From: a virus
Length of the DNA: 64,000 bases
Virus record (IMG/VR): IMGVR_UViG_3300025705_000581
Strand: one strand, 5' to 3'
In this document: one piece after another, positions 8,756 to 51,406 of the stretch
How positions within the stretch are numbered: position 1 is the first letter of the stretch
Layout of the letters: every line of letters starts with the position of its first letter
Program-made: the position numbers and the translations under genes
Notes under the pieces: generated by a model
What the model was told of the DNA's origin: nothing
Databases searched by the model: none
What the model saw: only the letters and a program-made list of their open reading frames with translations

Positions 8756-10360
8756 TTACAGCACCAACCCATTATCATCGTCAGCCCAATCCCCGCCTGT
8801 ATCAATAAACCCAAATGGAAGCATTTCCTCATCTATTTGTTCTTCGGTTTTTTCTCTAAGCTTTGCTAACGTGTGTATATCAGATAATTCTCTAAAATAG
8901 TCTTGGCTAGTAAACCAAGCAAATATTACCAAGTTCATTACCAGGTCATCGTGTGCACCTGGCTCTGCCTCATATGAATTTCCTTTCCGTGAAAACCGAG
9001 ACAGTTCTTGTATTGTGTCATAATCCCGCAGTAATACTTGATCTTGCTCTACTAACATTTTTAGCATTTGGCAACCAGTACCCTTTACGAGTTTTGTTGT
9101 TCTTATTCCATTATCTAATCTTTTACCACCAAATCCTGCCGAGACACGTTTACCTTTTGCGCCTGCGTTTTCGGTGTATAATAAGTTTTCATAACCTAGA
9201 TCCATTAAAAGAACATCACTCACTTGTTCTCCAATGTCATTAATTTCTATTAAAACACTTGCTTCATTATAAACAGTACCTATTCTATATATAATAGATG
9301 CAAAATCTACAGGTGTAACAAAGTTATCTCGGAATACACAAACCTGTTCGTAAGGCATAGTTGTAGCATCAAGTACTGTAAATGTTGAGTAATCTAATCC
9401 TTTACCTCGAGATACGTCAACCGTCATTACATATGAGTGTTCAGCAATTGGTTTTGCATATTGAGAAATACCTTCAGCCTGGTGTAAAGGTTTGTCATAT
9501 GCTAAGGTTTTAAGTTTTGCACCATTAATAAGTGTACCTGAACTGCCTAGAAACTGGCAACAGTACTCTTGGTTGAACTTTTCTTCATCATAATCAAGTG
9601 CCTCGAGTGTTTCCTGTTTCCATTTCTCATCACGTCCTGGAACATCATCCCACATAACTTCAGTATACTCATAACCGTTTGTACCTTCTTTTGCACCTTT
9701 ACAAGTTTTCCAAAAATGGTTTAACCCATTAGGTGTAGAAGTCATCAGAAGTTTTGTTGACTCGCCAGACGAGATAGTAGGATAAACAGATGCGAAAAAA
9801 TCGTCGTATCCTTCAATAAATGCAACCTCATCAAGGTATAGAAAATTAACAGACTTACCACGAATTGCGCTCGAAGACGTAGTACCTGCCAAAACTTGGC
9901 AACCATTTTCAAGTGCAATATTTCCTTTGTTCCATTCTTCAATTCCTTGTTGAAGCCATTTAGGTAATGCTTCATATGCTAACTTGACACGAGCCATAAC
10001 TTCCCTTGAAGCATCGCCTTTGTTTGCCAAAATAGCAACTGTTTTAAATTCATTAAATAAAATATAGTGTAAAATGATAGCAACCGCAGTTGTTGTTTTA
10101 CCTGACTGACGTGCTGTTAATACCGCGACGCGGCGATTATTTGTAATCTTTTCAACAATTTCTTCTTGATAGTTATACATATTAAACGGTACAAGACCAC
10201 GGTCAACATGGACGATTTTAATATATTCCTTTGCGAAATAAATTGGATCATCCGCACATTTGGTGTATTCCTGAATAAGTTCGGCATTCCATTCAATACC
10301 TTCACCAACACGTTTAAGATGTGAGTTACCTAAGTACCCTTTATTCATCATCTTTGTCAC
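8756..10360 (-). CDS. gp17: Terminase large subunit, gp17 family
   Basis: Walker A region ARQSGKTT, Walker B LYLDEVAF, STPNGLNHF, nuclease motifs VDVSRGKGLDYS and HDDLVM; no intein seen. Confidence 0.98.
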   Translation of the reverse strand: MTKMMNKGYLGNSHLKRVGEGIEWNAELIQEYTKCADDPIYFAKEYIKIVHVDRGLVPFNMYNYQEEIVEKITNNRRVAVLTARQSGKTTTAVAIILHYILFNEFKTVAILANKGDASREVMARVKLAYEALPKWLQQGIEEWNKGNIALENGCQVLAGTTSSSAIRGKSVNFLYLDEVAFIEGYDDFFASVYPTISSGESTKLLMTSTPNGLNHFWKTCKGAKEGTNGYEYTEVMWDDVPGRDEKWKQETLEALDYDEEKFNQEYCCQFLGSSGTLINGAKLKTLAYDKPLHQAEGISQYAKPIAEHSYVMTVDVSRGKGLDYSTFTVLDATTMPYEQVCVFRDNFVTPVDFASIIYRIGTVYNEASVLIEINDIGEQVSDVLLMDLGYENLLYTENAGAKGKRVSAGFGGKRLDNGIRTTKLVKGTGCQMLKMLVEQDQVLLRDYDTIQELSRFSRKGNSYEAEPGAHDDLVMNLVIFAWFTSQDYFRELSDIHTLAKLREKTEEQIDEEMLPFGFIDTGGDWADDDNGLVL

Positions 10361-35201: not shown

Positions 35202-38200
35202 TTATTGATTTAAATTATCAACTTCCTCTTTGAGATCCTTAATTGCTTCGATAAGTAATCCGACAATGTTACCGTAAGCAACAGCTTTCATTCCATCATC
35301 TGTTGTGTTAATAACTTCTGGTAAGATTTCTTCAACCTCTTGGGCAATAACACCTAGTTTTACTTTACCTAAAGCAGCTTTTCTCTCATATGTAACACCG
35401 CGCATACTTAACACTTTATTAAGCGCATTGGTAATAGTTTCAATATTAGTTTTTGTTCTTACATCAGATTGTGCGTTAATATCACCTGTTGATGTAAAGT
35501 TACCAGTTCCCATTGCAAACGTAAATCTCAATGTACCGTTATCTCTAATAGTATAATCAATACCTGTATCCATGTTTAATGTAACCTCGGCATCCGCAGA
35601 TGCATATGCAAATGCACCACCAATTGAGCTACCAAATGCAAGCTGAAGGTCATTTTGGAACCTTAATTCACCGCCTGTTTTTACATCTGATACCGAAGCT
35701 TCGAGGAAGTCACCTGATCCACCGTTAAGTGTACCTGTTACAACCAAGTTACCATCAACATTCAAATTCTCAACAGTTAATTCGTCATTAGTACCTGTAT
35801 AGAAGAAGTTTGAATCACCACCTGGGTTAGGTGATAGTGTTGCATATAATGGTTGTGCTCCGCCGCCTGCTTGTGTCATAGTAAGGAACAATGGTGAACC
35901 TTGTAATGCTGTTCCATATAGATCGTTTGTTTCAATTGCTTGGGCATCGGCATCACCTTGAATACCTTGCATACCCTGAACACCATCTGCACCAATAATA
36001 CCTTGTGGGCCTTGCGGACCTTGGTTACCTTGAATACCATCTTGCCCAACACCTTGAATACCTTGTGGACCCGGCCCACCTTGGAAACCTTGAACGCCTT
36101 GAACGCCTTGGGTACCTGCACCTGTGAAACCTTGAAGACCATCATCACCCGGTCCACCTTGAACACCTTGCATACCCTGAGTACCGCCACCACCGCTAAG
36201 ACCTTGTGGACCTTGTACGGACTGAATACCTTGATAACCTTGGATACCTTGAGAACCGCCTCCGCCGCCCTCACCTTGAATACCTGGCCCACCTTGGATA
36301 CCTTGAATACCTTGGTTGCCTTCACCACCAGGACCTTGAATACCATCGTCACCGATAATACCTTGAGTACCTTGAAGACCGCCTTGACCTTCTTCACCTG
36401 AAATACCTTGAACACCTTGATAACCTTGAGCACCTTGTGTACCATCAGCACCTTGGCCATCTACACCTTGGAAACCTTGTGTACCTTGAATACCAAATCC
36501 TTGGTTACCTTGAACACCTTGGATACCTTGTGGTCCATCACCACCGAATGTACCTTGAGCACCAATACCTTGGATACCTTGCGTACCCTGAATACCTGTT
36601 CCTGTTTCACCTTGAGCACCAGTAAATCCTTGTGTACCTTGAATACCTTGAGCACCAAATCCTGCGGGACCTACCTCACCTTGAACACCTTGGTCACCTT
36701 GTAAACCTTGAGCGCCTTGTGTACCTTGCGAACCTGCTGAACCAACACCGCCTGCACCTTGGAAACCTTGGAAACCAAGATCACCTTGGAAACCTTGTGT
36801 ACCCTGCAAACCTTGCGTACCTTGGAAACCGTCACCACCTGTAGCACCGTCTTGGCCTGTAGTACCTTGCGGGCCTTGTGGACCTTGGGCACCTTGATTA
36901 CCATCACCTGCAGTACCTTGAGCACCTTCTTCACCGGCATCACCTTGTAGGCCTTGAGGACCTTGAATACCTTGAAGACCAACAGCACCGGTAAAACCCT
37001 GTGTTCCTTGAGGACCTTGGGTACCTTGAGCACCCTGAAGACCTTGTTCACCTTGGTCACCTGTTCTTGCAAACGTAATTCTAACATCAGAATTATTTCC
37101 AAATGATGTAACGGAACCTGTTAAGAAAGTACAGTCATATTCAAAATAGCCTGATCTTTCAATAACGTCATTAATTCTAAATGCAACATAGTTACTTGTT
37201 GTTGTACCATCAATAACTCTAAAGAAACCTTTTACAGCGCTTGTCGGTTCATCTGTTGTTCTTAAGAATGCTTGAACATCGGTAAACGTGTCATCTCGGT
37301 CGTCAATACGCATTTCAGTTGCAGCAGCAATATTTGCCGCATTGAATTTAAGTAAACCAACACCTGGATCTGAAGTATCTGTTGCGGTACTAAATGTATA
37401 ATCAAGAGTCATACCACCAAATTCACCGGCAGGACCTAAGTCACCTTGAATACCTGTTGTACCTTGGATAGATTGTGGACCTTGTGTACCTTGGTTACCT
37501 AAGTCACCTTGAGTACCTTGCCAGCCCTGAGTACCTTGCCAGCCCTGAGTACCTTGCGGACCCTGAACTCCTTGTAATCCTTGCGGACCTTGGACGCCTT
37601 GGTCACCTTGTAATCCTTGAGTACCTTGCGGACCAACTTCGGATGTAAAGATATTCCCAATCATTCCTGAGTGAATAGAACATTGATAAACTAAAGTAGC
37701 AGGAGCATTAAACGGCACCCTGAATATCAATCTACCAGTTTCATCATTACCGACAATTGTTATGCCGTTGGTGTAATCTGATCCACCTGCGCCTGTTCTA
37801 ATTTTAAATGGGTGGCCTGATACATTCAAATCAAATGTATAAGTAAATCCTCTCAACAGATGTAGGTTAGGTTGTGTTACGCCGTCAACTTCATATGAAG
37901 TAGAACCCGTATTTGTTACAACAAATTCTCTGCCGCCTTCCATACCTTGAACACCTTGGAAACCCTGGAAGCCTTGTGTTCCTTGATCTCCTTGGAAACC
38001 CTGAGTACCTTGTGCTCCTTGGAAGCCTTGAGTACCTTGTGAGCCTTCATCACCTTGAATACCGAGTGTACCTTGGAAACCCTGAGTACCTTGCCAACCT
38101 TGCGTTCCTTGAATACCCTGCGTACCTTGAGCGCCTTGAAAACCTTGAGTACCTTGGAAACCGGTAAATCCTTGAATACCAATAGTACCTTGTGGACCTT

Positions 38201-39947
38201 GAACACCTTGGTTACCTTTATCACCGTATGGGATAAAATCAATAATTGCAGTATCACCAAATGATGCTACCGCACCTGTATTCCAACTTGTACCTGGTGA
38301 AATATCAGTTCCACCCAAAGTACTTCGGTCAACATAGGTAATATCAAAGTGTCCCCAGTCAGTTGGACCTGAGTCCCAAGTCCAATTCGTGAAGTTATAG
38401 ATTAGGAATTCGTAATTACCGTTTCCTACATTCTTTGGTGTTCTAATAAAGATAGAACCTTTTGGAACACTTGTAAGTGTTTGAAGGAAATCAAACAATC
38501 CATCTACTCGGCGACCTGTATGCGTGAGGTCATCAATATACAACTTATCAGCTTGAGTAACATCAGCGTTATTAAGTAACCAACCGTTTAATCCCGGAAA
38601 ACCTTCAGTTGTTGATGAATTGAAATCCCACTCAAATGTTAGACCACCACTATAACCGATTTCACCTTGTGCTCCATATCTACCTTGAACACCTTGGTAA
38701 CCTTGTGTACCCTGCATCCCTTGCGGACCTTGTAAACCTTGTGCTCCTTGAAACCCGGTAAATCCTTGAAACCCAGTTGTACCTTGGAAACCTTGAACAC
38801 CTCGGTCACCTGATTGACTAAATGCTACAACACAAGGATCAGAAATATAAGTTCCTGGGTTACCTGAGTCTTCATAAACGAAATCTTCTTTGTCACCATT
38901 ACCACTTACGTAAGAAGCAGTAAGTGTCCAATAAGAACCAACCTCAGTCATACCTGTGATTGCAAATATAGCATATGTAGATGGAGTGTCACGCAAAGTA
39001 ACTTTCATATACGCCTTAGTAGCTGAGGAAGCTTGATTAATTGCAGTAAACAATGCTTCTAGGCTAATATTAAATGAGTCATTTTCACTCATCCAAATTG
39101 TACTTACACCAGTAAGAGCACCTGTATCACCAGCTGGGCTATTGAATACCATAAATCCACTTGCTGGCGCAGGCGAGTTTGACGTTAGATGCGAAACATT
39201 ATATTGAACAATATTTCCCGAGTCGGTACCGTTAAAGCCTTGAGTACCTTGGAAACCAAGATCACCTTGGATACCTGTTGTACCTTGAATTGACTGCGGT
39301 CCTTGAACACCTTGTGGACCTTGGACTCCTTGTAATCCTTGCGGACCTTGAACGCCTTGGTCACCTTGCAACCCTTGTGGTCCTTGAACACCTTGCAATC
39401 CTTGGACGCCTTGTGTGCCTTGATAACCTTGTGCACCTTGGAAACCACGATAACCGCGTGATCCTTGAATACCTTCTTGTCCTTGGTCGCCTTGTAAACC
39501 TTGGTCACCTTGAACACCTTGGAAACCCTGAACACCACGGAATGAGCCAATGTTAACCCAATTCGTTCCGTCCCAAATCCAAAGTTCATCATCTGCTTCG
39601 TCAATTACACCTTCACCGATATTTGGTGTTGGGAATGCTGTAGTAAGTGTTAGTTGTGGATTACCGCCTGCATCTACATCAGCAACTGATCCTAAGATTG
39701 TAAACCCTGGACCGTAATCACCTTGAATACCTACGTCACCTTGAATACCAGTAAATCCTGTAGTACCTTGTGGTCCTGTACCCATATCTTGCCATACAGT
39801 ACCATTTGAATACTTCATTGTGCCGTTGTCGGCATATACAATAGATCCTTCAAACGGTGCTGGATCTAACCCTATCGGAAATGCTTGTGGAATACCATGA
39901 CCGAGGGTAACGGTCCTAGCTCGCATTGACTTGAACCTAGTCGACAT
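35202..39947 (-). CDS. Collagen-like (Gly-X-Gln) virion fibre with globular inserts, a cupredoxin-like domain and a C-terminal S74 chaperone
   Basis: 1581 aa; long G-X-Q triplet runs; three related globular domains; GHPF...YQCSIHSGM domain; C-term QSDVRTKTNI...GVIAQEVEEILPEVI...VAYGNIVGLLIEAIK. Confidence 0.88.
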   Translation of the reverse strand: MSTRFKSMRARTVTLGHGIPQAFPIGLDPAPFEGSIVYADNGTMKYSNGTVWQDMGTGPQGTTGFTGIQGDVGIQGDYGPGFTILGSVADVDAGGNPQLTLTTAFPTPNIGEGVIDEADDELWIWDGTNWVNIGSFRGVQGFQGVQGDQGLQGDQGQEGIQGSRGYRGFQGAQGYQGTQGVQGLQGVQGPQGLQGDQGVQGPQGLQGVQGPQGVQGPQSIQGTTGIQGDLGFQGTQGFNGTDSGNIVQYNVSHLTSNSPAPASGFMVFNSPAGDTGALTGVSTIWMSENDSFNISLEALFTAINQASSATKAYMKVTLRDTPSTYAIFAITGMTEVGSYWTLTASYVSGNGDKEDFVYEDSGNPGTYISDPCVVAFSQSGDRGVQGFQGTTGFQGFTGFQGAQGLQGPQGMQGTQGYQGVQGRYGAQGEIGYSGGLTFEWDFNSSTTEGFPGLNGWLLNNADVTQADKLYIDDLTHTGRRVDGLFDFLQTLTSVPKGSIFIRTPKNVGNGNYEFLIYNFTNWTWDSGPTDWGHFDITYVDRSTLGGTDISPGTSWNTGAVASFGDTAIIDFIPYGDKGNQGVQGPQGTIGIQGFTGFQGTQGFQGAQGTQGIQGTQGWQGTQGFQGTLGIQGDEGSQGTQGFQGAQGTQGFQGDQGTQGFQGFQGVQGMEGGREFVVTNTGSTSYEVDGVTQPNLHLLRGFTYTFDLNVSGHPFKIRTGAGGSDYTNGITIVGNDETGRLIFRVPFNAPATLVYQCSIHSGMIGNIFTSEVGPQGTQGLQGDQGVQGPQGLQGVQGPQGTQGWQGTQGWQGTQGDLGNQGTQGPQSIQGTTGIQGDLGPAGEFGGMTLDYTFSTATDTSDPGVGLLKFNAANIAAATEMRIDDRDDTFTDVQAFLRTTDEPTSAVKGFFRVIDGTTTSNYVAFRINDVIERSGYFEYDCTFLTGSVTSFGNNSDVRITFARTGDQGEQGLQGAQGTQGPQGTQGFTGAVGLQGIQGPQGLQGDAGEEGAQGTAGDGNQGAQGPQGPQGTTGQDGATGGDGFQGTQGLQGTQGFQGDLGFQGFQGAGGVGSAGSQGTQGAQGLQGDQGVQGEVGPAGFGAQGIQGTQGFTGAQGETGTGIQGTQGIQGIGAQGTFGGDGPQGIQGVQGNQGFGIQGTQGFQGVDGQGADGTQGAQGYQGVQGISGEEGQGGLQGTQGIIGDDGIQGPGGEGNQGIQGIQGGPGIQGEGGGGGSQGIQGYQGIQSVQGPQGLSGGGGTQGMQGVQGGPGDDGLQGFTGAGTQGVQGVQGFQGGPGPQGIQGVGQDGIQGNQGPQGPQGIIGADGVQGMQGIQGDADAQAIETNDLYGTALQGSPLFLTMTQAGGGAQPLYATLSPNPGGDSNFFYTGTNDELTVENLNVDGNLVVTGTLNGGSGDFLEASVSDVKTGGELRFQNDLQLAFGSSIGGAFAYASADAEVTLNMDTGIDYTIRDNGTLRFTFAMGTGNFTSTGDINAQSDVRTKTNIETITNALNKVLSMRGVTYERKAALGKVKLGVIAQEVEEILPEVINTTDDGMKAVAYGNIVGLLIEAIKDLKEEVDNLNQ
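37510..37557. repeat. 18-bp exact tandem repeat (about 2.7 units) in the collagen gene
   Basis: tgagtaccttgccagccc twice plus a partial third; encodes QGTQGW units. Confidence 0.85.
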
Positions 39948-40405: not shown

Positions 40406-43400
40406 TTATACTACAGCTCGGCTGTTAGATGCTCGTCTTGCAAGTTTACGAACCGATGATGTAAACGGACGGCCTTCAATTCGACCTGTTCTACCGTTAA
40501 TTCTCAATCCTCTTGCAAAGTATTGGTTGTTAAGTTCGTCTGCACCTGACCAACGAACCCTGCCGCCATCTTCTGACAGTACAGATGCAATAGCAGAGAT
40601 CGGCAAGCCGAGGTTTCTAAAGTTAATTGGAAGCGCATTTCTGTTAACACCTGCCGAAGCACCATTAAACTGGTGAGCAATTGATTCAACAAGTGAACCA
40701 AAGGTCAATACACTCGGTCTTAGGACAGACGCACGAAGAACATCATCAAACAAACCATCAATCATTGCGTCGTGGTTTATATCAGGTGTGTAATTCGTTT
40801 TAATAAATGTTTTCATTCTTGTCCATGCCTGATAGAATGATACAAGTAGATCCACGTTATTTGCTCCATCTGTTTGCCATGCTGTTCCGTCCCAATAGTA
40901 AATAGTACCGTCATACCTATTTCCGGCATAATCCGTTGATACTATATATGCGTGATTTGGTTTTTGTCCAGTGACATTACCAAGTGCGCCCAATCCGTTC
41001 AGTGTACCTTGGAAACTTAATCCTGGTGTTGTTGGATTGAATACTGGGAACACGTGCTTACCATTGTAATCGAAGAATGCTGCTGCATATGTTCTCGTGG
41101 ATGTTTGACTTCCATCTTGATTTGTGACAACATTTTGGAATTTAAAGTCATTTGCCAATGATTGTAACAAGTTAGTTGCGTCACGGCGAGTCAAGTTAAT
41201 GTCGAAGAATTTATAATTCTGTCCAACAAATCTTACAGTCTCAACAGACAATTTCTTTCTGTTGGCTTTAAGGATTTCTCGAGCAAATTTAAACACTTTA
41301 TTATCTTCCCATTCAAAGTCAGGTAGGATTGTTGGTCCAAAGTCTTTTTCATCTTTGTTTAGGAACGAGCGATAATAGATATCGGCAAGGTCATAAACGT
41401 GTTGTGCTTCAACTGCTGTTGTTGACTCACCTTTAATAGAAACACCTGGTAGTGTTTCAAGAAGTGCGTCACGAGCAATCTCACCTAATTTACGGTATGC
41501 TTTTGCAGTTGGCACACGTTGATCTTCTGGGATACGATATACGTTGTTCCAGAAGTAGAATGCCGCATTCCATTTAGAAGCAGATGTTCCACCGTAGTTT
41601 AGGTCATATGCAAATGCGTCAACAAGATATCCTGCATCTCGGCGACACTTAACTTTGTTATAATCCAATACATTATAAGTAGTATTTATCCAATTTGTTA
41701 CATCGTCTGCGAGGATATCCAAATTATCATCAATTTCTTTACCCGCCCAAACAAGGCTGTTATCAATCCATGAAGTATCAGGTTCAATGATTTCAGGTAT
41801 ACCGTCAATGCTATCACGGCGGATTGCATCTTCAATAATACGGATCATATCGGCAACATATTCACCTTCAACCGCAGTTGCTGGTGCACCTGATATATCT
41901 TGTGCTTGTCTTGTAACAATTGCTTTTCTGATTGCACCTTCTGTTGCTGATACAAATGTATGAGCTTTATCAACACCTGCCGGTCCGGCATTCATTGTAA
42001 TTGTGGTACCGTCAACAAATTCAACTCTACATGGTTTACCATCTGCCCATTCATCACCGCCAACACGTGGGTGTGAAATATTAATTGGTGTAGGATCAAC
42101 GTCTGATGTTGGGCAAGAGAATGTAATGCCCAAGTTATCAAATGTTACGAAGTCACCTGCTTCAATGTTATGAGAACCGATTGTTGCTGTCATCATACCA
42201 GTAAGTGGATCATAATCTACACCTGTTGGAGTGTAACCGTAATTGGTTGGTGTTTGCTCCTGAACAACTGCTGATACTAAATCTGCCATTACAGTATATA
42301 GATCTGCGGTTTGCTGACGTTGGTCATATGGCAGTACGCTTGTTGCATTTCTAAAGTAGAACTGTGCAGATTGTACCGATGCAAAGTTGGTTGTGTAGTT
42401 AACGTCATGCGATATAGCATCTACAAGGATACCAATGTCACGGCGACATTTCTGTTTCGGATAACTAATACCATTCCAATTGTTTGTGATATAATTAATA
42501 ACCGATGTTGCAAGAGCAGGAATTGAATCTTCAATTGCTTCTTTTGCTGTGATAAGATCAGATTGGATCCAATTTGTAAATGGTGGAACCTCTAATGGAA
42601 TACCTTTCTCATCATTATCATCTGCAATATTTGCAACAATCCATGCCAAGTTTTTAGCTTCGGTTGCAATTGTTCTTCTTGCTGCAAGATGAGATGTATC
42701 TTGTTTGATAAGGTTTCCTGTTACTTGTGAAACCGCATTTGGTAATGCTGATACGAATGTATGAGCACCACCTGCAGCAGGACCAACATTAACAGTAATA
42801 GTTGTTGATGATGTTGCAAGTACAGGAATTGCACGGAGGTATGCAGGATGGTGCGGTTGTGGTGCCGCGTGGTTTGTTGTGTTTCCATCCATGTCACAAG
42901 TAAATGTCATACCATCCTCAGTTAGCATAACATGGTCATTAGTTGTTAACTCATGCTGACCAATTGTGATTACAATTTCACCAGTTACGTTATCGTATGC
43001 TGCAGTTGTTGGTGTATATTTTGCACCAAATTCAACAGGTACCAATTCATTTCTTGTTACGTGCTCAACGATTTCACCGAGGCGAGTAAATGCCATTCTT
43101 GTTGCATCACGTTGATCTGTTGGTAATAGGTTAACTGCATTTTTGAAATACAATCCTGCGGCATTTACCATTGCTGAATTACCACCGTATTGAATATCGT
43201 GGCAAATTGCATCAAGGATATAACCTGTATCACGGAAACAACGGTCACGGTCATACTCGAGGTAGTTGAATGTTGTTTTTAGATAATCAGTAATTGTTGA
43301 TTGTAATGCGTCTTTTCTTGAACCAATCAATGCTGCTTCAGTTTCATAACCGTAAGATGCAGCACCAACTGCTCCTGCGAATACTTCAATATCATCTGGC

Positions 43401-46400
43401 ATATCAACCAATGAGTCGGCAGCAATTACAGTTGCAATAATTTCCCAAAGATCTTGCATATCATTTCCGATTGCCGCAGCAACAGGACCGAATACTTTAT
43501 TTTGGATTACAGTGTTACCTGCTGATGGTGTAACATCAATCTTAAGGATCAAGCTGCGAGAAACATCACCGAGGTGTGTATATAATGCAGCAGTAGGTGC
43601 ACGTTGATCTGCGGACAATGTTGATAGTCCGTTTTCAAAGTACAATTTAGCAACATCAAGCATAGCAGTATTAGTTACGTGCTGAATGTCATATGATGCA
43701 GCATCAGCCATGATACCGGTATCTCTTTCACATTTAGCAGTATCGTATACCAATGATGGGTAATTAACTGCAACCCATGCTGTTGCTTCAGCCTGTAAGA
43801 ATGCGCGGTTCAATTGTAATGCTTGTCTTGCATTTATATTATTTGACCCACGGTTTCCTGTACCGTAATCATAGTTTGTACCGTCAGGTGTGTAATCGTT
43901 TACCATTGCGGTAATAATATTACTGAAGGAATTCTGAGCTCTTTCTAATGCCACACCAGTCAATCTTGACTCAATGTCTTTTTGTATATATTGAATTCCT
44001 TCAATTGTTTCGGCAAGTTGGTCTTCGATAACCTTATCAGCGCCTACAGTACCAATGCGGTACGATTTGCCTACGTACTTACCATTATAGTTTGAACCTG
44101 TTTGAACATCTCTTCTAACTGCGTCAAGGATAAATCCTGCATCACGAGCGCATTTGTTTTCATCAAATGTATAGAATTCGTCATCAATATAGTTAACGAT
44201 TTCATTTTGAATAAACTCACGGTTCATGGCAAGTGATTGTCTTGCGTATGTTCTTGATGGTTCCATCAATGGTGATGATGTAACCGCAGGTATTTTGCTA
44301 GGTGAGAAATCATCAACTGTTTGTGCGATAATTTCAACAAGATTATGGGCACGAGAACCAGTTGCAACATCCGCCGCTGGGATAGATGTTGTATCTTGTA
44401 CTCTTACATTACCTGTTGTCGCTGTTACAGTGATAGCACGAGAAACTTCATCAATAACATCAGCAAGGTGTTGATATGCTAATCTTGTCGGTCCTCTTTG
44501 CTCAGGTGGTAATGTATTAACTGCACCAAGGAAGTAATAATTTGCAGAATGTACTGTCGCGGCATCTCCGCCGTATTCCAAATCTTCGGTGATTGCGTCA
44601 ACAATGTAACCAATATCACGGTAACATTTAGCTTCGTTATATGCAAGACCTGAATATGTCACAGCAATCAGATCAATGATTTCTGTTTGATATTTTGGTT
44701 TTGATCCACCAATCAATCTTGCTTCTGATATGATTGTTGTGCCATATGCCGATGTTGGTTTTGGCTCAATAACTGTAGGAACAGTGCCATCGTTATTTCT
44801 GATTGTTTGGCCTACACCATCAAACAGATTAACTACTGAACTTGATACCGTCGGTGCAAGTGATCTTCTAATACCGTTTGCTGTCGCTGATACAAAAGTA
44901 TGTACCTTATCAACCTTAGCGTCACCGACCTGCATTGTAATAGTTGTTGCAGTTACAGCATCAATTCTAACTGGTTTGTTAAAGATTGGATCAGTTGGGC
45001 GTGGGTGTGAGATATTAATTGGTGTTGCATCAGTTGGTGATGTTGGGCAAGATAGTGTGATTGCGTTCTCATCAAAGATAACATAATCGCCAACACTAAA
45101 TCTGTGTCTATCACCAAGAGTAACTTCCATTACACCTGTCATATGAGCATATGCAACATTAGTTGCTGTATATGCCTCGGCAACATTTGCTCGGCGGATA
45201 CAATCAGCATCAGCAGATACGAATGTGTGAGCACCAGTATAACCATTTGCTGCACCGGCATTTACAGTAATTGTAGTTGCATCGGCAGCAGTAATGATAT
45301 ATTGTTTACGTAGGTTAGGATCCGCAGCATTTGGATGTGAGTCTGTTCCACCGCCACCGAAGCCACAGCTGAATGTGATTGATTCAGGATCAATTGTAAT
45401 TCTATCACCGACAACAAAATTATGAGTACCAATTGTTGTTACCATGATACCGGTAACAGGATCATAAGTTGCAGTTGTTGGTGTATAAGTATCTTCATCA
45501 GTTTTAACTTGTGTAACAACTCCTTGAAGATTATCAACGTCTTCACCGCGAACAATTTGACCTGCGATTTTAGCAATGTGGTCATATACTTCTGATGTTG
45601 GTACGATTTCATCATCTGCCAAAACAGGTAATGCATTTTCAAAATACAGTCTTGAATTATTTACAGTTGATGCAGTTGAACCGTGTTGGACATCCCAAGA
45701 AACAGTATCAACAAAGATACCAAGGTCACGCTCACAGGCAACAGCGTCATAAACAAATCCAGGATGGTTTGCTGTGATCCACGCAATTGCTTCTTTTTGG
45801 ATGAATGATTTATTAAGTTGTAGGATATGGCGTGCTGCAAACGCATCTTCTGATATTGATTGAATACCGAAGTCGATTACATCCGCGGCGGCATTACCGT
45901 TTGACATAATATCAATGATTTCATCAAATGCTGCATTAGAGCGAGCAATTGCTGTTGCATCAGTTAATACGTCAGTGTTAATTTTACCTTTGAGCCATGT
46001 AATAGCACCAACAGTTTCTGTTAATTGGTTATTAACAACATTGTTAGCACCTACAGTACCAATGCGATAACCCATACCTGTGTAAACTGCGTTATTGTTT
46101 GAACCTGTCAAAACGTCACGCATTACAGCGTTAAGGATATATCCTGTGTCGCGCATACATTTTTCTTTATCATAGATAAAGTAATTATCATTCAACCATG
46201 CAGTAATTTCTTCTTGAATAAAGGTTTTGTTTTTCTGCAATTGTCTTGCGGCATACTTACCTTTTTCAGATGAGCTTACTTTAATAATTGAACCTTCTTC
46301 AGCAGATACGAATGTATGAGTACCTGTATAACCACCCGCTGAGCCTGCATTGAATGTAATTGTAGTTGCATCCGCGGCGGTTACTTCTTGTGGGTGTTCG

Positions 46401-49400
46401 TACATCGGCTCACCGATACGTGGGTGATAGTCTGTTCCACCGCCATTAAATCCACAACTAAATGCGAAACTCAACGGTTTTGTTTGAACATTATCGCCTA
46501 CTTCAATATCGTGTCCGGGGATTGTTACAACCATGTCACCTGTGTTAGGATTATATGTTGCGTCGGTTGGTGTGTAAGCTTTAACAAATTTTGCTGGGTC
46601 AGTAAAGTACAATGCGTGCCCATCAATACAATCTTTTGTTGCCGATACGAATGTGTGCGTATTAGCATGCCCGTTAGCATTACCAACATTAACAGTAAAT
46701 GTTGTTGAAGTTGTTTCTGTAATTCTTACAGGCTGATTATATGCTGGGTGACCTGGTAATGGTGCAGGATCTGTTCCTACAACACCGCCAACATCACAAC
46801 TGAATACGATTGACTCAGGAGCAATTGAAATCCATTGTCCTACAGGCAAATCATGCTGACCAATTGTTACAACCATTTCACCGTTTACAGGATCATATGT
46901 TGCATCTTGTGGTGTATATTTTCCTGTCCACATGCCATCTTCACGAATAGCATTTGTTGTTGCTGATACGAATGTATGAGCAGAAGTATCTTGTGATTTA
47001 CCAACATTAACTGTAATAGTTGTTGCGGTTCTTGCACTGATTTCAACAGGGTTTTCGTATGCAGGATGCTGGCGTTCTGTTGTCAGACCATCGGCCAATG
47101 CTGATACGAATGTATGTACTCCGCCACCATCTTCAACTGCACCGACATTCATTTTTAAAACAAAACCGTCAACTTCATCAATTGTTACAGGCTTATTAAA
47201 GAATGGGTGATGTGACTCAGGCGCGGCATGCTCGGTTACGTTATCATCAAGCTCACAAGTAAATGTTACGGCACCTGGTTTGAATGTTACAGTATCGCCT
47301 GCTTTCAATTGGTTAGCAGAAATTGTAACCGTGAACTCACCAGTTGATGGAACGTATGTTGCGGTTGATGGTGTCCATGTTTCAAATGTTGTTGATGGAT
47401 ACGCATGCTGTGAAGTGTTCCCATCAAGAGCACAGGTAAATACCATGCTGTTCTTTTCAATGCGGATTTTATCACCTACGGCAAAATCGTGAGCACCGAT
47501 TGTAATTTCAACTACACCGGTTACAGGATTATACGCTGCATTAGTTGGTGTGTATTTTTTACCATTATTATTCAACAGTGCAACCATTTGGTCAAACGAT
47601 GTGTTAACTCTATCAACTGCAAGTGTGTTACCTGTTACTGTGTTTGCAGTTTCAGATTTCATATGGTTGATTGAAGCAACAGTTTGCTCAAGTTGTTTTG
47701 TAACACTTACTTCGCCTGATTTAGAACGGTAAGCAATACCTGTTTGATATGCGTTAAAGTTTGTACCTAACAACAAATCTCTTTGAACGGCAGGCATGAT
47801 ATATTCTTTAGTATCTCTTTCACACTTTTTGCTGTCATAGAAATACCATTGATTTTCTGCCCATCCTTCCATGTAATCCTGGATGAATTCTTTGTTTGCT
47901 TGCAATTGCTTACGAGCATTACGTTTATCAGCAGGGATACCAGCATCATCAGAGAATGTTAATGCTTCACCTAATACGGATACAGATGATGGTTTTGCCG
48001 ATACGAATGTATGAGCAAAGTTAGCACCTGTTGTGCCTGCATTGATTGTAATAGTCTTTGCTGAAACTTCATCAATTGGTATAGCACGGCGGTAGTTAAA
48101 TGTATCACTCTTACGTGGGTGAGAGATTTCTAACTTGTTACCATCACTATCACAAGTGAATGTAAATGCTTCATCAGCAATTGTTACGAACTGACCTTTT
48201 TGCAAAGTATGGGCACCGATTGTGATAACCATTCTTCCTGTATCAGGTTCGTATGTTGCTTTTGTTGGGTTGAATTTTTCAGTTCTTGTATTATCAAGAA
48301 TATCAATAATTGTGCTCATTCTATCGTATGATCTTTCTGCCATGATTGCAGAGTTTGCTTCGACAAGATCATCGGTAATTTTGCGTAATCTTTCAAATGA
48401 TCCAACAGTTTCTTCACGTTGATTTTCAACAACTGTTTGACCTTGTTTAGAATAATATGCCTGTCCTGCAACTACTGAGTTGTAGTTTGTATCAAGCAAT
48501 GAGTCCCACTTAACAGCAGGTAGAATATATTCTTGAATATCGCGGCGACATTTAGCACTATCGTATGAGAAGAATTCATCGTTATTATCAATCCATTCAA
48601 CCATTCCATCAATAATAAGTTCACGGTTGTCTTGGATGATTTCACGAGCAGCTGTTCTTGCAACATTACCTGTATCTGTAAAGAATAGGTCAGATGCATA
48701 TGACTCGCCATTCTCAAGAATGTTTAATGTCTCATCAAGTGAAACATTGGCACGAGTATTAACTGCTGCTTCTGAATTACTAAACAATCTGTTAATTTCT
48801 GATTTCAAATGTTCGTTGGCACCGAGAGTTTCAGTCAACTGCTCATTTTTAACAACATATGAAATTGGGCTTGAATAAGCAATGCCGTTTAATCGACCCC
48901 AATAGTTTGTATTGAGTGCAATGTCATATCCAACACTATCAATGATAATTCCTGTGTCTCGTTTACATTTTTCAGCGTCATAACCTTGATAACCCAAACC
49001 ACCTTGTGATATTGGTGTTGTCAAATAACCAACCATGTCTTCAATAATGTCTTGCTTATTATCCATAAGGGTATCGGCAAATACAGTGTTAGAGAATAGT
49101 AATGTGTCATCCATTTGAGATGGTGTAAACACTTGAGTTGAACCTTTAGCTCTCATCGAAATGTCACCAAACTGAGTACCTGAGTTGTTGAGGGTCATTT
49201 GACCGCCGTTCAGCGCATAGAATGCTGTACGAACAAAGATTGACAACGAACCAATACCGTTAACACCAGCACCGTCTCTTGCAACATAACCCATACCGTT
49301 TTGAGTACGTGGTGTGAAACCAAAACAAAGAACGTATGTAAATAATGAGTCAGGATCAAGTACACGACGGTCCGCGAGCATACACCCACCACCGCGACCA

Positions 49401-51406
49401 ACAAGTCTGTTTGGGAAATCATCAATACCAAGTGATGCAACTTGACCTGTACCGCCACTTTCAGAATATAGCATATCACCTGGTTGGACATCACCAACAA
49501 GGTTTCTTACATAGATTGCTGAGTCAGATGTAACACTTGTTGCCCAAGATACATACCCAGATGCACCTGATGAGAAGGTAATACTATCACCTTCGGCAAA
49601 CAACGATTGAATTGAGTGACCTGCTTCCATAAAGAATTCTTGGCCAAGGTCAGCAATTGTACCTTTAGAGTTAAACGGATTAAGAGGTGGTTCAACATCC
49701 AAACGGTTAAAGTTTGATAGCTGAGAACTATCTCGAATATATGGCGAACGTCTTAGTTTTGCACCTGGGCGATATGCAACCGCAAATCCGCCTTCAGGAT
49801 AATCAAAGTTATCAACTTCAAAGTTCATATATGCGAAACCTTGAACATAACAACCTGATCCAACAAGAACACCGTTAGTTCTTTCAAATCCTGGTTTCTT
49901 CTGAATAACTGTTGCGTACTGACCTGCTGTTGAAGTCATAGAACAATCGTCAGGCAATTCAATTGGGTCATCTACATAATAAGTACCTGGTCCGACCGAA
50001 ATATGAACCGCATCATTTAACGCGTTTCTGTTATAAACACCACCTGCTTTTTCAACTGCAAGTTCTGCACCGCGTTTTAGTGTTTGAACAGGTTTAAGAA
50101 TTGTACCTGGGTTTCTATCATCACCATCAATGGCAACGTGTACCTTAAGTGCTTTTTCTGTTGACTTAGAAATTTCCTCAAAGAACTGGCGATAGCTGAT
50201 CTGTTGTGTTTCATTTGTTTTAACATTTTTAATGGCGAAGTAGTTATCTTCATCCATGTTTGGCTGCCACACATTGTGTAGTTCCATGTCAAAGTCAACA
50301 AGTGTTGAGCTATCAATTGTTGTATTTGAAACTTCTGAGTCCTGAATAGAACCATCAACAAATGATGATTTATCAGAGATTGCCATTCCTTTTGTTTTGG
50401 AACTTGTGATGGTCATATTTGACGCTGTCACATTATCCATAATACCTTGGAACGATGAATTAGTAATTACGTTATTATCAAGAGTACCATCTTGAATTGT
50501 TGTATCGGTAAATATATTATTGGCGCCTGTTCCGTCACTGAAATCAGAGTCAGTAATATTTACTGAATTAATAAACCCGCCTGTGATGGAGGATGAAGTC
50601 ATCGCAACATTGTTTGCGGTTGAATCTATGATCCGACCTTGTAGAATAGTACTAGTAAATACGTTATTATTACCGGTGCCATCACTGAAATCAGTATTCA
50701 GGATGGTTGAGTTAGCAATTGCTGTATCCCAAATTTGACCGTTTGAAAATCTTGAGTTTGTAATATCAACATCATCAAGATCAACATTGAAGATAGAACT
50801 GTTAGAGATTGTACCTTCAGAGAAAGTAGTCGTAACAATTGATGAATTAGAAATCGTAGCATCTTCGAGAATAAGTTCGTCAATACTAATATTTGTAAGG
50901 ATCAGGCCGTTTGCAGTACCTTGGTCAATAGTAACATTATTATATTCGGAATTGTCAATACGAGAATTCGTAAAGACCATATTGTTACCTGTACCATCAT
51001 TGAATGTTGAATTATCAATTGTTGAATAGGTAAATACGTCGTTGTTACCTGTACCATCACTGAAATCGGAGTTCAGAATAGTTGACGAGTTCATCGAGAT
51101 ATTATTTGCGGTTGCAGTCAGAATGGTGACATTAGATATCACGGTCTGTTGCATTGTTCCGCGGTTTATTGTCGAGTCATTAATTTGTGTAGTATTAATA
51201 ACTGAGTCAGACATTGTAACACCGGAGATTGTACCTCCAGTGATTGTAATTCTATCAAAGATTTCATATTGTATAGCTTGAACTAATTCAGCTCTAGTTA
51301 GGTTCTTTGTACCGTCATCACCTTGGATAAGGTTAACTATAACAAAGAGGTCTTCGGTACGTGTATTTGCACCGGTTATAGGACCTAGTTCTGTAATCTT
51401 TGACAT
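40406..51406 (-). CDS. Giant (3666-aa) virion protein: beta-solenoid, pectin-lyase-like beta-helix, 11 phycobiliprotein-like C-x-R-D helical repeats and 9 HTFVSA beta modules
   Basis: Open ORF with a late promoter; N-term Ser/Asn/Asp pentapeptide-like repeats; HVAIDGDDRNPGTILKPVQTLKRG...VGPGTY beta-helix start; repeats counted by eye. Confidence 0.85.
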   Translation of the reverse strand: MSKITELGPITGANTRTEDLFVIVNLIQGDDGTKNLTRAELVQAIQYEIFDRITITGGTISGVTMSDSVINTTQINDSTINRGTMQQTVISNVTILTATANNISMNSSTILNSDFSDGTGNNDVFTYSTIDNSTFNDGTGNNMVFTNSRIDNSEYNNVTIDQGTANGLILTNISIDELILEDATISNSSIVTTTFSEGTISNSSIFNVDLDDVDITNSRFSNGQIWDTAIANSTILNTDFSDGTGNNNVFTSTILQGRIIDSTANNVAMTSSSITGGFINSVNITDSDFSDGTGANNIFTDTTIQDGTLDNNVITNSSFQGIMDNVTASNMTITSSKTKGMAISDKSSFVDGSIQDSEVSNTTIDSSTLVDFDMELHNVWQPNMDEDNYFAIKNVKTNETQQISYRQFFEEISKSTEKALKVHVAIDGDDRNPGTILKPVQTLKRGAELAVEKAGGVYNRNALNDAVHISVGPGTYYVDDPIELPDDCSMTSTAGQYATVIQKKPGFERTNGVLVGSGCYVQGFAYMNFEVDNFDYPEGGFAVAYRPGAKLRRSPYIRDSSQLSNFNRLDVEPPLNPFNSKGTIADLGQEFFMEAGHSIQSLFAEGDSITFSSGASGYVSWATSVTSDSAIYVRNLVGDVQPGDMLYSESGGTGQVASLGIDDFPNRLVGRGGGCMLADRRVLDPDSLFTYVLCFGFTPRTQNGMGYVARDGAGVNGIGSLSIFVRTAFYALNGGQMTLNNSGTQFGDISMRAKGSTQVFTPSQMDDTLLFSNTVFADTLMDNKQDIIEDMVGYLTTPISQGGLGYQGYDAEKCKRDTGIIIDSVGYDIALNTNYWGRLNGIAYSSPISYVVKNEQLTETLGANEHLKSEINRLFSNSEAAVNTRANVSLDETLNILENGESYASDLFFTDTGNVARTAAREIIQDNRELIIDGMVEWIDNNDEFFSYDSAKCRRDIQEYILPAVKWDSLLDTNYNSVVAGQAYYSKQGQTVVENQREETVGSFERLRKITDDLVEANSAIMAERSYDRMSTIIDILDNTRTEKFNPTKATYEPDTGRMVITIGAHTLQKGQFVTIADEAFTFTCDSDGNKLEISHPRKSDTFNYRRAIPIDEVSAKTITINAGTTGANFAHTFVSAKPSSVSVLGEALTFSDDAGIPADKRNARKQLQANKEFIQDYMEGWAENQWYFYDSKKCERDTKEYIMPAVQRDLLLGTNFNAYQTGIAYRSKSGEVSVTKQLEQTVASINHMKSETANTVTGNTLAVDRVNTSFDQMVALLNNNGKKYTPTNAAYNPVTGVVEITIGAHDFAVGDKIRIEKNSMVFTCALDGNTSQHAYPSTTFETWTPSTATYVPSTGEFTVTISANQLKAGDTVTFKPGAVTFTCELDDNVTEHAAPESHHPFFNKPVTIDEVDGFVLKMNVGAVEDGGGVHTFVSALADGLTTERQHPAYENPVEISARTATTITVNVGKSQDTSAHTFVSATTNAIREDGMWTGKYTPQDATYDPVNGEMVVTIGQHDLPVGQWISIAPESIVFSCDVGGVVGTDPAPLPGHPAYNQPVRITETTSTTFTVNVGNANGHANTHTFVSATKDCIDGHALYFTDPAKFVKAYTPTDATYNPNTGDMVVTIPGHDIEVGDNVQTKPLSFAFSCGFNGGGTDYHPRIGEPMYEHPQEVTAADATTITFNAGSAGGYTGTHTFVSAEEGSIIKVSSSEKGKYAARQLQKNKTFIQEEITAWLNDNYFIYDKEKCMRDTGYILNAVMRDVLTGSNNNAVYTGMGYRIGTVGANNVVNNQLTETVGAITWLKGKINTDVLTDATAIARSNAAFDEIIDIMSNGNAAADVIDFGIQSISEDAFAARHILQLNKSFIQKEAIAWITANHPGFVYDAVACERDLGIFVDTVSWDVQHGSTASTVNNSRLYFENALPVLADDEIVPTSEVYDHIAKIAGQIVRGEDVDNLQGVVTQVKTDEDTYTPTTATYDPVTGIMVTTIGTHNFVVGDRITIDPESITFSCGFGGGGTDSHPNAADPNLRKQYIITAADATTITVNAGAANGYTGAHTFVSADADCIRRANVAEAYTATNVAYAHMTGVMEVTLGDRHRFSVGDYVIFDENAITLSCPTSPTDATPINISHPRPTDPIFNKPVRIDAVTATTITMQVGDAKVDKVHTFVSATANGIRRSLAPTVSSSVVNLFDGVGQTIRNNDGTVPTVIEPKPTSAYGTTIISEARLIGGSKPKYQTEIIDLIAVTYSGLAYNEAKCYRDIGYIVDAITEDLEYGGDAATVHSANYYFLGAVNTLPPEQRGPTRLAYQHLADVIDEVSRAITVTATTGNVRVQDTTSIPAADVATGSRAHNLVEIIAQTVDDFSPSKIPAVTSSPLMEPSRTYARQSLAMNREFIQNEIVNYIDDEFYTFDENKCARDAGFILDAVRRDVQTGSNYNGKYVGKSYRIGTVGADKVIEDQLAETIEGIQYIQKDIESRLTGVALERAQNSFSNIITAMVNDYTPDGTNYDYGTGNRGSNNINARQALQLNRAFLQAEATAWVAVNYPSLVYDTAKCERDTGIMADAASYDIQHVTNTAMLDVAKLYFENGLSTLSADQRAPTAALYTHLGDVSRSLILKIDVTPSAGNTVIQNKVFGPVAAAIGNDMQDLWEIIATVIAADSLVDMPDDIEVFAGAVGAASYGYETEAALIGSRKDALQSTITDYLKTTFNYLEYDRDRCFRDTGYILDAICHDIQYGGNSAMVNAAGLYFKNAVNLLPTDQRDATRMAFTRLGEIVEHVTRNELVPVEFGAKYTPTTAAYDNVTGEIVITIGQHELTTNDHVMLTEDGMTFTCDMDGNTTNHAAPQPHHPAYLRAIPVLATSSTTITVNVGPAAGGAHTFVSALPNAVSQVTGNLIKQDTSHLAARRTIATEAKNLAWIVANIADDNDEKGIPLEVPPFTNWIQSDLITAKEAIEDSIPALATSVINYITNNWNGISYPKQKCRRDIGILVDAISHDVNYTTNFASVQSAQFYFRNATSVLPYDQRQQTADLYTVMADLVSAVVQEQTPTNYGYTPTGVDYDPLTGMMTATIGSHNIEAGDFVTFDNLGITFSCPTSDVDPTPINISHPRVGGDEWADGKPCRVEFVDGTTITMNAGPAGVDKAHTFVSATEGAIRKAIVTRQAQDISGAPATAVEGEYVADMIRIIEDAIRRDSIDGIPEIIEPDTSWIDNSLVWAGKEIDDNLDILADDVTNWINTTYNVLDYNKVKCRRDAGYLVDAFAYDLNYGGTSASKWNAAFYFWNNVYRIPEDQRVPTAKAYRKLGEIARDALLETLPGVSIKGESTTAVEAQHVYDLADIYYRSFLNKDEKDFGPTILPDFEWEDNKVFKFAREILKANRKKLSVETVRFVGQNYKFFDINLTRRDATNLLQSLANDFKFQNVVTNQDGSQTSTRTYAAAFFDYNGKHVFPVFNPTTPGLSFQGTLNGLGALGNVTGQKPNHAYIVSTDYAGNRYDGTIYYWDGTAWQTDGANNVDLLVSFYQAWTRMKTFIKTNYTPDINHDAMIDGLFDDVLRASVLRPSVLTFGSLVESIAHQFNGASAGVNRNALPINFRNLGLPISAIASVLSEDGGRVRWSGADELNNQYFARGLRINGRTGRIEGRPFTSSVRKLARRASNSRAVV

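Follow-up and report, generated by a model that had tools for sequence, protein, structure and literature searches.

Predicted phycobiliprotein-type domains repeated in a giant cyanophage protein as candidate sites of bilin attachment

Twelve helical units in one giant protein

The stretch of viral DNA analyzed here (64,000 nucleotides of IMG/VR record IMGVR_UViG_3300025705_000581, hereafter the window) represents the structural module of a T4-like cyanomyovirus, in which every gene lies on the minus strand. Within it, a giant open reading frame (ORF) of 3666 amino acids (aa) carries twelve copies of a helical unit that resembles the phycobiliproteins (PBPs), and these units are the subject of this study. 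An IMG/VR genome of 221 kb (G002), which is 98% identical to the window and estimated to be 100% complete, was used to stand in for the whole genome. The ORF and the units, as located by a regular expression (regex) for the central motif and by a hidden Markov model (HMM) built from the twelve units, are as follows.

40406..51406, minus strand: giant ORF, 3666 aa (P0001), with a pentapeptide-like N terminus, twelve PBP-like units and some 200 further aa at the C terminus
48704..49099, minus strand: unit 1, Cys814 (codon 48965-48967); regex and 12-unit HMM; sub-threshold PF00502 match
48284..48676, minus strand: unit 2, Cys953 (codon 48548-48550); regex and HMM
47561..47944, minus strand: unit 3, Cys1195 (codon 47822-47824); regex and HMM
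45893..46279, minus strand: unit 4, Cys1750 (codon 46157-46159); regex and HMM; AlphaFold2 model m6aaad285acc7; sub-threshold PF00502 match
45434..45862, minus strand: unit 5, Cys1891 (codon 45734-45736); regex and HMM
44348..44752, minus strand: unit 6, Cys2261 (codon 44624-44626); regex and HMM
43892..44272, minus strand: unit 7, Cys2419, KCARDAGF (codon 44150-44152); regex and HMM; two-unit model m32700af8312d
43457..43858, minus strand: unit 8, Cys2559 (codon 43730-43732); regex and HMM; two-unit model m32700af8312d
42965..43366, minus strand: unit 9, Cys2723 (codon 43238-43240); regex and HMM
42179..42574, minus strand: unit 10, Cys2987 (codon 42446-42448); regex and HMM
41381..41773, minus strand: unit 11, Cys3254, KCRRDAGY (codon 41645-41647); regex and HMM
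41009..41311, minus strand: degenerate unit 12, LTRRDA at aa 3406 (41189-41191); HMM i-E 9e-22 over model positions 2-82

A first-pass annotation of this DNA had described eleven units with a Cys and one without in the 3666-aa ORF, and both the regex scan and the open frame bear this out; each of the eleven Cys codons (48965 through 41645) lies exactly where that annotation placed it, and the uninterrupted spacings of 139, 141, 158, 140, and 164 aa that it gave are correct. The motif C-x-R-D, preceded by Y/F-x3-[KAR], occurs at aa 814, 953, 1195, 1750, 1891, 2261, 2419, 2559, 2723, 2987, and 3254, while unit 12 has Thr in place of Cys, keeps the Arg and the Asp, and is truncated past helix F. 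The 12-unit HMM recognizes exactly twelve domains in the giant protein, with i-E values from 1e-47 to 9e-22 that follow by construction, as the units are the training sequences, and it finds no domain elsewhere in a six-frame translation of the window. Pairwise identity among the twelve units is only 15-40%, with the Arg, the Asp, and a second Asp (+14) invariant. When searched against 1.8 billion public proteins, the 12-unit profile matched 1416 representative clusters at E ≤ 1e-3, single proteins having as many as 36 matched stretches, and the repeat is thus far beyond chance. We also observed two unit subtypes, one with "YRIGTVGA...QLxET" (aa 953, 1195, 1750, and 2419) and one with "YFxN...LPxDQRxPT" (aa 1891, 2261, 2559, 2723, 2987, and 3254), and neighbouring units are frequently of different subtype (e.g., 1750/1891 and 2419/2559), reminiscent of alpha/beta pairing.

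Conservation was assessed in 1276 units cut from 151 related proteins. The best-conserved columns were Asp+14 (100%), the Asp of the motif (99%), Tyr+30 (99%), the Arg (96%), the Cys (96%), Thr+45 (90%), and Tyr-5 (84%); polar residues thus hold the most conserved positions, a pattern expected of a ligand site and unlike that of a structural repeat. Each domain has one conserved Cys, which lacks a partner for a disulfide. In profile alignments with PBPs, the near-invariant Cys, Arg, and Asp fall in register with Cys84-x-Arg86-Asp87, the chromophore site on helix E. Among the 30 columns with the highest conservation, His is nowhere the commonest residue, and this speaks against heme ligation by a proximal His.

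Predicted fold and likeness to phycobiliproteins

The first-pass annotation had proposed a search with an AlphaFold model for a phycocyanin-like fold, and in the searches performed here PBPs lead with two independent programs. The AlphaFold2 model of unit 4 (aa 1703-1848; input, a 24-row alignment of units from the window and from locus L004) has a pLDDT of 79.4, a pTM of 0.74, and six helices, with the conserved Cys as residue 48, close to the beginning of the long third helix (45-65). In a Foldseek search of this model against 350,542 PDB chains, the matches listed at ranks 1-50 were all PBPs, the PBP domain of ApcE, or PBP-derived fluorescent proteins, with TMq of 0.56-0.71, root-mean-square deviations (rmsd) of 2.2-4.9 Å (one outlier, 9.2 Å), approximately 135 aligned columns, and E-values of 2e-3 to 2e-2; examples are ApcD (4po5_A; TMq 0.70, rmsd 2.7 Å, 136 columns) and 8iml_B (TMq 0.71, rmsd 2.2 Å). 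VIA-align, run against 48,161 representative chains, placed PBPs and ApcE at ranks 1-8 (Z 13.3-15.1), followed by a photocobilin (bilin/B12) and sensor globins (Z 11-13) and then by haemoglobins (Z 7-9). A two-unit AlphaFold2 model (m32700af8312d) gave mostly PBP matches one domain at a time and fused di-haemoglobins for the pair; because its pLDDT was 65.8, it serves as a per-domain replicate only and not as a guide to inter-domain packing. Finally, independently made BFVD models of the homologous segments of phages S-PM2, S-ShM2, S-WAM2, S-CAM1, and S-H9-1 matched the unit 4 model with TMq of 0.55-0.72. The predicted models therefore support assignment of the units to the globin-type PBP fold.

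The runner-up matches also bear on the possibility that the units are globin-like modules for some other ligand (e.g., another tetrapyrrole, a metal, or a host-surface molecule) and function in receptor binding or sensing unrelated to bilins. The bilin-binding globin domain of photocobilin and the heme sensor globins (PDB 8j2w and 4zva) share the superfold with the units and are themselves ligand-dependent signalling domains, and the invariant Asp+14, Tyr+30, and Thr+45 of the units suggest a remodelled pocket. On the other hand, these proteins score below PBPs, lack the C-x-R-D motif, and are only 8-11% identical to the units; a heme globin or globin-coupled sensor would be expected to have a proximal His on helix F, which was not found, and structural Z scores were 7-12, compared to 13-15 for PBPs. 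The triad that the units retain is that of bilin proteins, and the enzyme associated with them (see below) is a bilin lyase. We consider this possibility improbable.

With regard to sequence, a number of profile comparisons point in the same direction at low scores. Ranks 1 and 2 of a search of the 12-unit profile against 177,635 distinct PDB sequences were R-phycocyanin alpha and CpcA (E 0.18 and 0.35), aligned on KCARDIGYY, and five of the seven matches with E < 10 obtained with a 24-unit profile were CpcA chains, none of them significant. For single repeats compared with the Pfam phycobilisome family (PF00502), as the first-pass annotation had proposed, two units aligned co-linearly with the family model while all scores fell under the cut-off: unit 1 (aa 6-109 of a 156-aa segment) matched model positions 35-141 with E 0.098, unit 4 matched positions 65-154 with E 0.019, and for the other ten of the twelve units no match was reported. 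In a six-frame scan of G002, the sole PF00502 match falls within the giant ORF. An hhalign comparison of 300 family units with CpcA gave 93.6% probability (P 2e-7), in register with Cys84, and comparison with CpcA plus CpcB (alpha plus beta) gave 92.5% over 88 columns from helix B to helix G; the CpcA and CpcB alignments were built from cpc loci of cyanobacterial genomes. The family consensus and CpcA share an ungapped C-x-R-D-x-G-Y-x6-Y-x4-G-G. These HMMER and hhalign alignments agree with the earlier proposal that C-x-R-D occupies the register of the Cys84-Arg86-Asp87 bilin site, as judged from sequence, and the long co-linear Pfam and hhalign alignments are also in accord with the parallels it drew upstream (helix B) and downstream (helices G and H) of the motif.

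We interpret the twelve repeats as highly diverged PBP-type globin domains that most resemble alpha subunits and the PBP domain of ApcE and that lack the X helix; the most economical reading is that they keep the helix E chromophore site (Cys84-x-Arg86-Asp87-x-Gly-Tyr...Gly-Gly) under selection. Compared to CpcA, ApcA, and ApcD, the units have a predicted fold of the same globin type (TM 0.6-0.7, Z 13-15), a similar domain length, co-linear helices B-E-F-G-H, and K-C-x-R-D-x-G-Y...G-G on helix E in the same register; they differ in falling under the Pfam threshold, in having no X helix, and in their extra invariant Asp+14, Tyr+30, and Thr+45. Moreover, CpcA, ApcA, and ApcD are free subunits of approximately 160 aa in (alpha-beta)3 discs, whereas the phage domains are twelve tandem copies in a 3666-aa protein, interleaved with beta-rich modules. 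ApcE (LCM; PDB 4xxi and 4xxk) is closer in that its PBP domain also sits inside a large multidomain protein, and this domain ranked second with VIA-align (Z 14.7) and appeared among the Foldseek matches; however, ApcE has a single PBP domain and belongs to the intracellular phycobilisome core, whereas the phage protein has 11-12 such domains (relatives have up to 36 matched stretches) and is encoded in a tail-fibre module. ApcE attaches its own bilin autocatalytically and hence offers a precedent for phages without a lyase.

Distribution, cpeT association and genomic setting

All 188 phage records matched with a helical-unit query were cyanophages, as were all 350 matched with a longer query (a few of these are named only "Marine virus"). 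Presence and absence of the repeat and of CpeT, a T-type bilin lyase, were scored in 28 T4-like cyanophages, comprising the 16 genomes of Sullivan et al. 2010, G002, and 11 cyanomyoviruses from a search with the major capsid protein (MCP), with a rhizobiophage as control; isolate genomes were chosen over IMG/VR MCP loci, as the latter were mostly short fragments, and CpeT was called from six-frame matches to Pfam PF06206 together with Table 3 of PMC3037559. Twenty phages had both the repeat and CpeT, two had the repeat only, none had CpeT only, and six (P-SSM2, S-SM2, S-SSM7, MA10, S-CAM9, and P-TIM68) had neither (Fisher p = 7.4e-5, uncorrected for phylogeny, n = 28). In three phages, each of a different genus, a giant repeat gene follows cpeT on the same strand with one ORF between them, in the order cpeT (175-191 aa), an ORF of about 190 aa, and the giant CxRD-repeat gene (3673-4017 aa).

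S-PM2, LN828717.1, 154408-167723 (L255): cpeT, ~190-aa ORF, and repeat gene
Syn1, GU071105.1, 19938-33236 (L253): cpeT, ~190-aa ORF, and repeat gene
S-CAM3, NC_031906.1, 18111-30739 (L254): cpeT, ~190-aa ORF, and repeat gene

The intervening ORF is annotated as a 2OG-Fe(II) oxygenase in S-PM2 and might modify the neighbouring giant protein. The role of phage cpeT has been described as unresolved (PMC3037559); more than 60% of T4-like cyanophages have cpeT without its host partner genes. Phage bilin genes and lyases are currently assigned to host light harvesting and antenna maintenance (PMC10665884, PMC10452541, PMC3037559). The cyanophage bilin genes (ho1, pebS, pcyA/pcyX, and cpeT) thus share with the repeat both the phages and the chemistry, and cpeT co-occurs and is syntenic with it, but they are regarded as auxiliary metabolic genes for host antennae, unlike a lyase with a phage-encoded PBP-like substrate.

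Two other candidate links to bilin genes were rejected. A role of phage bilin-synthesis genes in pigmenting the giant protein was rejected on the distribution of ferredoxin-dependent bilin reductase (FDBR) genes, which were present in 9 of the 22 genomes with the repeat and in 2 of the 6 without it. An S-type lyase (CpeS, PF09367) as partner was rejected because, among the 29 genomes including the control, it was found only in MA10, which has neither repeat nor CpeT.

MA10, PP110483.1, 171161-171397: CpeS-like hit (PF09367)

In G002, a heme oxygenase gene lies directly upstream of a bilin reductase gene (G002:C1:143997-145445; L006/L007); the reductase scores 91 bits with the PcyA model, compared to a cut-off of 206 bits, and is possibly a PcyX-like enzyme. 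Neither CpeT nor CpeS was found in the G002 genome.

The setting of the giant gene suggests a virion component. Past the large terminase gene, the window continues with a series of very large tail-fibre and baseplate genes, the repeat gene among them; its neighbours include a collagen-like fibre of 1581 aa and several proteins with tail-fibre C termini. PHROGs labels for the 3666-aa protein are "virion structural protein" and "tail fiber protein" (phrog 701/5342), and depositor names on GenBank homologues include "gp7", "baseplate wedge initiator", and "short tail fiber"; against Pfam, the whole protein gives only a weak N-terminal pentapeptide-repeat match (Pentapeptide_4, 32 bits; cut-off 38 bits). 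Relatives of the protein, located with a single-protein locus search, are 66-98% identical to it, while megablast of the giant gene against phage records found no match, which indicates that the lineage of the window is absent from sequenced isolates at the DNA level. Other features of the window and of the giant ORF are listed here.

340-1668, minus strand: major head protein
4723-6240, minus strand: portal
6827-8686, minus strand: sheath
8756-10360, minus strand: large terminase
50267..51256, minus strand: pentapeptide-like repeat region of the giant ORF, about aa 51-380; Pentapeptide_4 sub-threshold; phrog_15350 and phrog_12514
41936..48274, minus strand: span of nine beta-rich "HTFVSA" modules of the giant ORF, motifs at aa 1132, 1431, 1477, 1584, 1697, 2060, 2169, 2882, and 3149

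Several further observations concern the architecture of the giant protein and its surroundings. The N-terminal ~330 aa consist of degenerate pentapeptide-like repeats rich in N, S, T, and D ("SDGTGNN...F"), probably a beta-helix, and an apparently beta-rich segment (aa ~420-770) precedes the first helical unit. The HTFVSA modules, with the consensus YTPTxATYDPxTG...FxC...HP...TTITVNVG...HTFVSA, are approximately 95-110 aa each and match phrog_1276; each has one conserved Cys plus conserved His residues, and the modules stand between or within the helical units, following helix G or helix H, in groups of 1, 4, 2, 1, and 1. The collagen-like tail-fibre gene (35202-39947, minus strand) has a G+C content of 0.44-0.47, compared to 0.36-0.41 around it, and a more strongly negative GC skew. 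Searched against the phage collection, the major head protein aligned best over its full length with proteins of Sinorhizobium phage phiN3, Stenotrophomonas phage DLP_6, cyanophages P-TIM40 and S-H38, and Caulobacter phage Cr30 (59-67% identity), while classical cyanomyoviruses align with only its C-terminal 60%; the phage of the window thus belongs to a divergent T4-like lineage.

Bilin attachment, rival explanations and light-dependent adsorption

Covalent bilin attachment is in our judgement the best single explanation of why Cys-Arg-Asp is conserved, why each domain has a lone Cys, and why cpeT is found only together with the repeat, and we hold it at evenly balanced confidence. As we envisage it, a PBP-type domain would have been captured from a cyanobacterial host lineage, would have lost its X helix, and would have been amplified in tandem within a fibre or baseplate protein. 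The giant protein would be made late in the infected cyanobacterium, bilins being supplied by the host pathway or by a phage heme oxygenase and a PcyA-like reductase, and each domain would receive one bilin, joined through a thioether to its conserved Cys. Attachment would be carried out by the phage T-type lyase CpeT in most phages, and autocatalytically or by a host lyase in phages without CpeT, such as that of the window. After assembly, a fibre or baseplate appendage of the virion would bear as many as 11 bilins on each chain, and their most attractive use may be as a photoreceptor behind the light-dependent adsorption of cyanomyoviruses, with photoprotection or host-surface binding as alternatives. 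Bilin attachment, virion location, and light sensing are thus what we infer from the observations above.

The adsorption data that make a photoreceptor attractive come from a small number of phages. As reported in PMC6628666, P-HM1 and P-HM2 fail to adsorb without light, S-PM2 adsorption needs light yet is independent of host photosynthesis, and dark adsorption occurs with P-SSM2 and the podovirus P-SSP7; light-sensitive receptors or tail fibres were suggested in that paper. In the genomes examined here, the repeat is present in P-HM2 and S-PM2, with two giant ORFs each, and was found in neither P-SSM2 nor P-SSP7, P-SSM2 being negative also with a broad 300-unit HMM and a whole-genome motif scan. 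Presence of the repeat hence fits light dependence in all four phages, an anecdotal agreement. That virions bear arrays of bilin photoreceptors, chromophorylated by the phage's own CpeT, which gate adsorption by light, is an attractive proposal that we nevertheless judge doubtful.

A number of observations weigh against bilin attachment or against parts of the mechanism outlined above. Sequence searches remain below conventional significance (E 0.18-1.5 for profiles against PDB, 13-15 bits for Pfam), and this weak likeness consists mostly of motif signal; the best units reach 13.1 and 15.4 bits with PF00502, for which the cut-off is 22.2 bits. When C-x-R-D was masked, the hhalign match fell to P 0.003-0.1; narrower masks keep the register, and wider masks leave only helix B, placed as in the unmasked alignment. 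As most of the signal is lost with masking, homology and a convergent motif are inseparable by sequence alone, and a memorised motif could also bias AlphaFold toward the PBP fold. The N-terminal X-Y helix hairpin, which mediates formation of the alpha/beta monomer in PBPs, was not found; structural alignments begin at about PBP residue 19-21, and the unit 4 model has only one or two short helices ahead of helix B. The invariant Asp+9, Asp+14, Tyr+30, and Thr+45 have no clear counterpart in PBPs, and with invariant residues of their own the units could bind a ligand other than bilin. Among the genes expected to be involved, no association was seen between FDBR genes and the repeat, and P-SSM2 and S-SSM7 have pebS/ho1 without a repeat; CpeT is missing from two repeat-bearing genomes, G002 (the lineage of the window) and ACG-2014f. 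T-type lyases have Cys-beta153/155 as their target, and not Cys84-type sites. Several of the phages that lack both repeat and CpeT may be related, and the co-occurrence statistic is uncorrected for phylogeny; the correlation with adsorption covers only four phages. S-PM2d088 and S-PM2d218 are annotated as "hypothetical" and not as "virion structural protein", and we know of no report of coloured cyanophage preparations.

The masking result and the non-significant HMMER matches are what would be expected if an unrelated helical repeat had converged on K-C-x-R-D-x-G-Y and AlphaFold reproduced a PBP-like arrangement from the learned motif. An ESM Atlas feature search with one unit returned only unnamed viral clusters and capsid families (scores ≤0.87), an uninformative list without PBPs. 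Yet the identities between consensus and CpcA span 20 ungapped residues, the helix-B alignment keeps its placement after masking, and the units agree with PBPs in length and in the order of five or six helices, with 123-139 aligned residues (Z 13-15, clearly above the 7-9 of ordinary globins); in addition, the family occurs only in phages whose hosts contain PBPs and is tied to a PBP lyase gene. Convergence consequently appears to us a slim prospect.

An explanation that deserves more weight, although we still regard it as rather unlikely, accepts descent from PBPs or globins but takes the domains to be chromophore-free building blocks of a fibre, in which the conserved Cys/Arg/Asp/Asp/Tyr network helps the domains fold or pack against one another, binds a metal, or cross-links chains, and in which the link with cpeT reflects only shared phylogeny or genome neighbourhood. 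It fits an obvious structural protein among tail-fibre genes that has lost the helix needed for PBP assembly and gained invariant residues that are not PBP-like, and it fits the lack of CpeT in the lineage of the window and of any FDBR association. Structural repeats, however, normally conserve hydrophobic core residues, whereas the best-conserved columns here include the bilin-contact triad across approximately 1,300 units that are otherwise 15-40% identical, and a lone free Cys per domain is unusual for an extracellular protein. Moreover, none of the 20 phages with cpeT lacks the repeat, and the placement of cpeT two genes upstream of the repeat gene recurs in three genera.

A full-text literature search found no description of PBP-like domains in phage structural proteins or of a substrate for phage CpeT, and PBPs have to our knowledge been described only as antenna proteins inside the cells of cyanobacteria, red algae, and cryptophytes. 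If confirmed, compact bilin-binding domains of this kind, which may attach the bilin by themselves, would also attract interest as fluorescent tags. Should the fold and the bilin site hold true, the PBP family would gain a new branch and a new use in a virion protein. The puzzle of phage cpeT would become testable, with the phage's own PBP-like protein as the predicted lyase substrate, as would that of light-dependent adsorption, for which a bilin-like action spectrum and adsorption in the dark by phages without the repeat are predicted. The light-gated photoreceptor, if real, would make these phages the first chromophore-bearing, light-sensing virus particles and would explain both the light dependence of their adsorption and the purpose of their cpeT.

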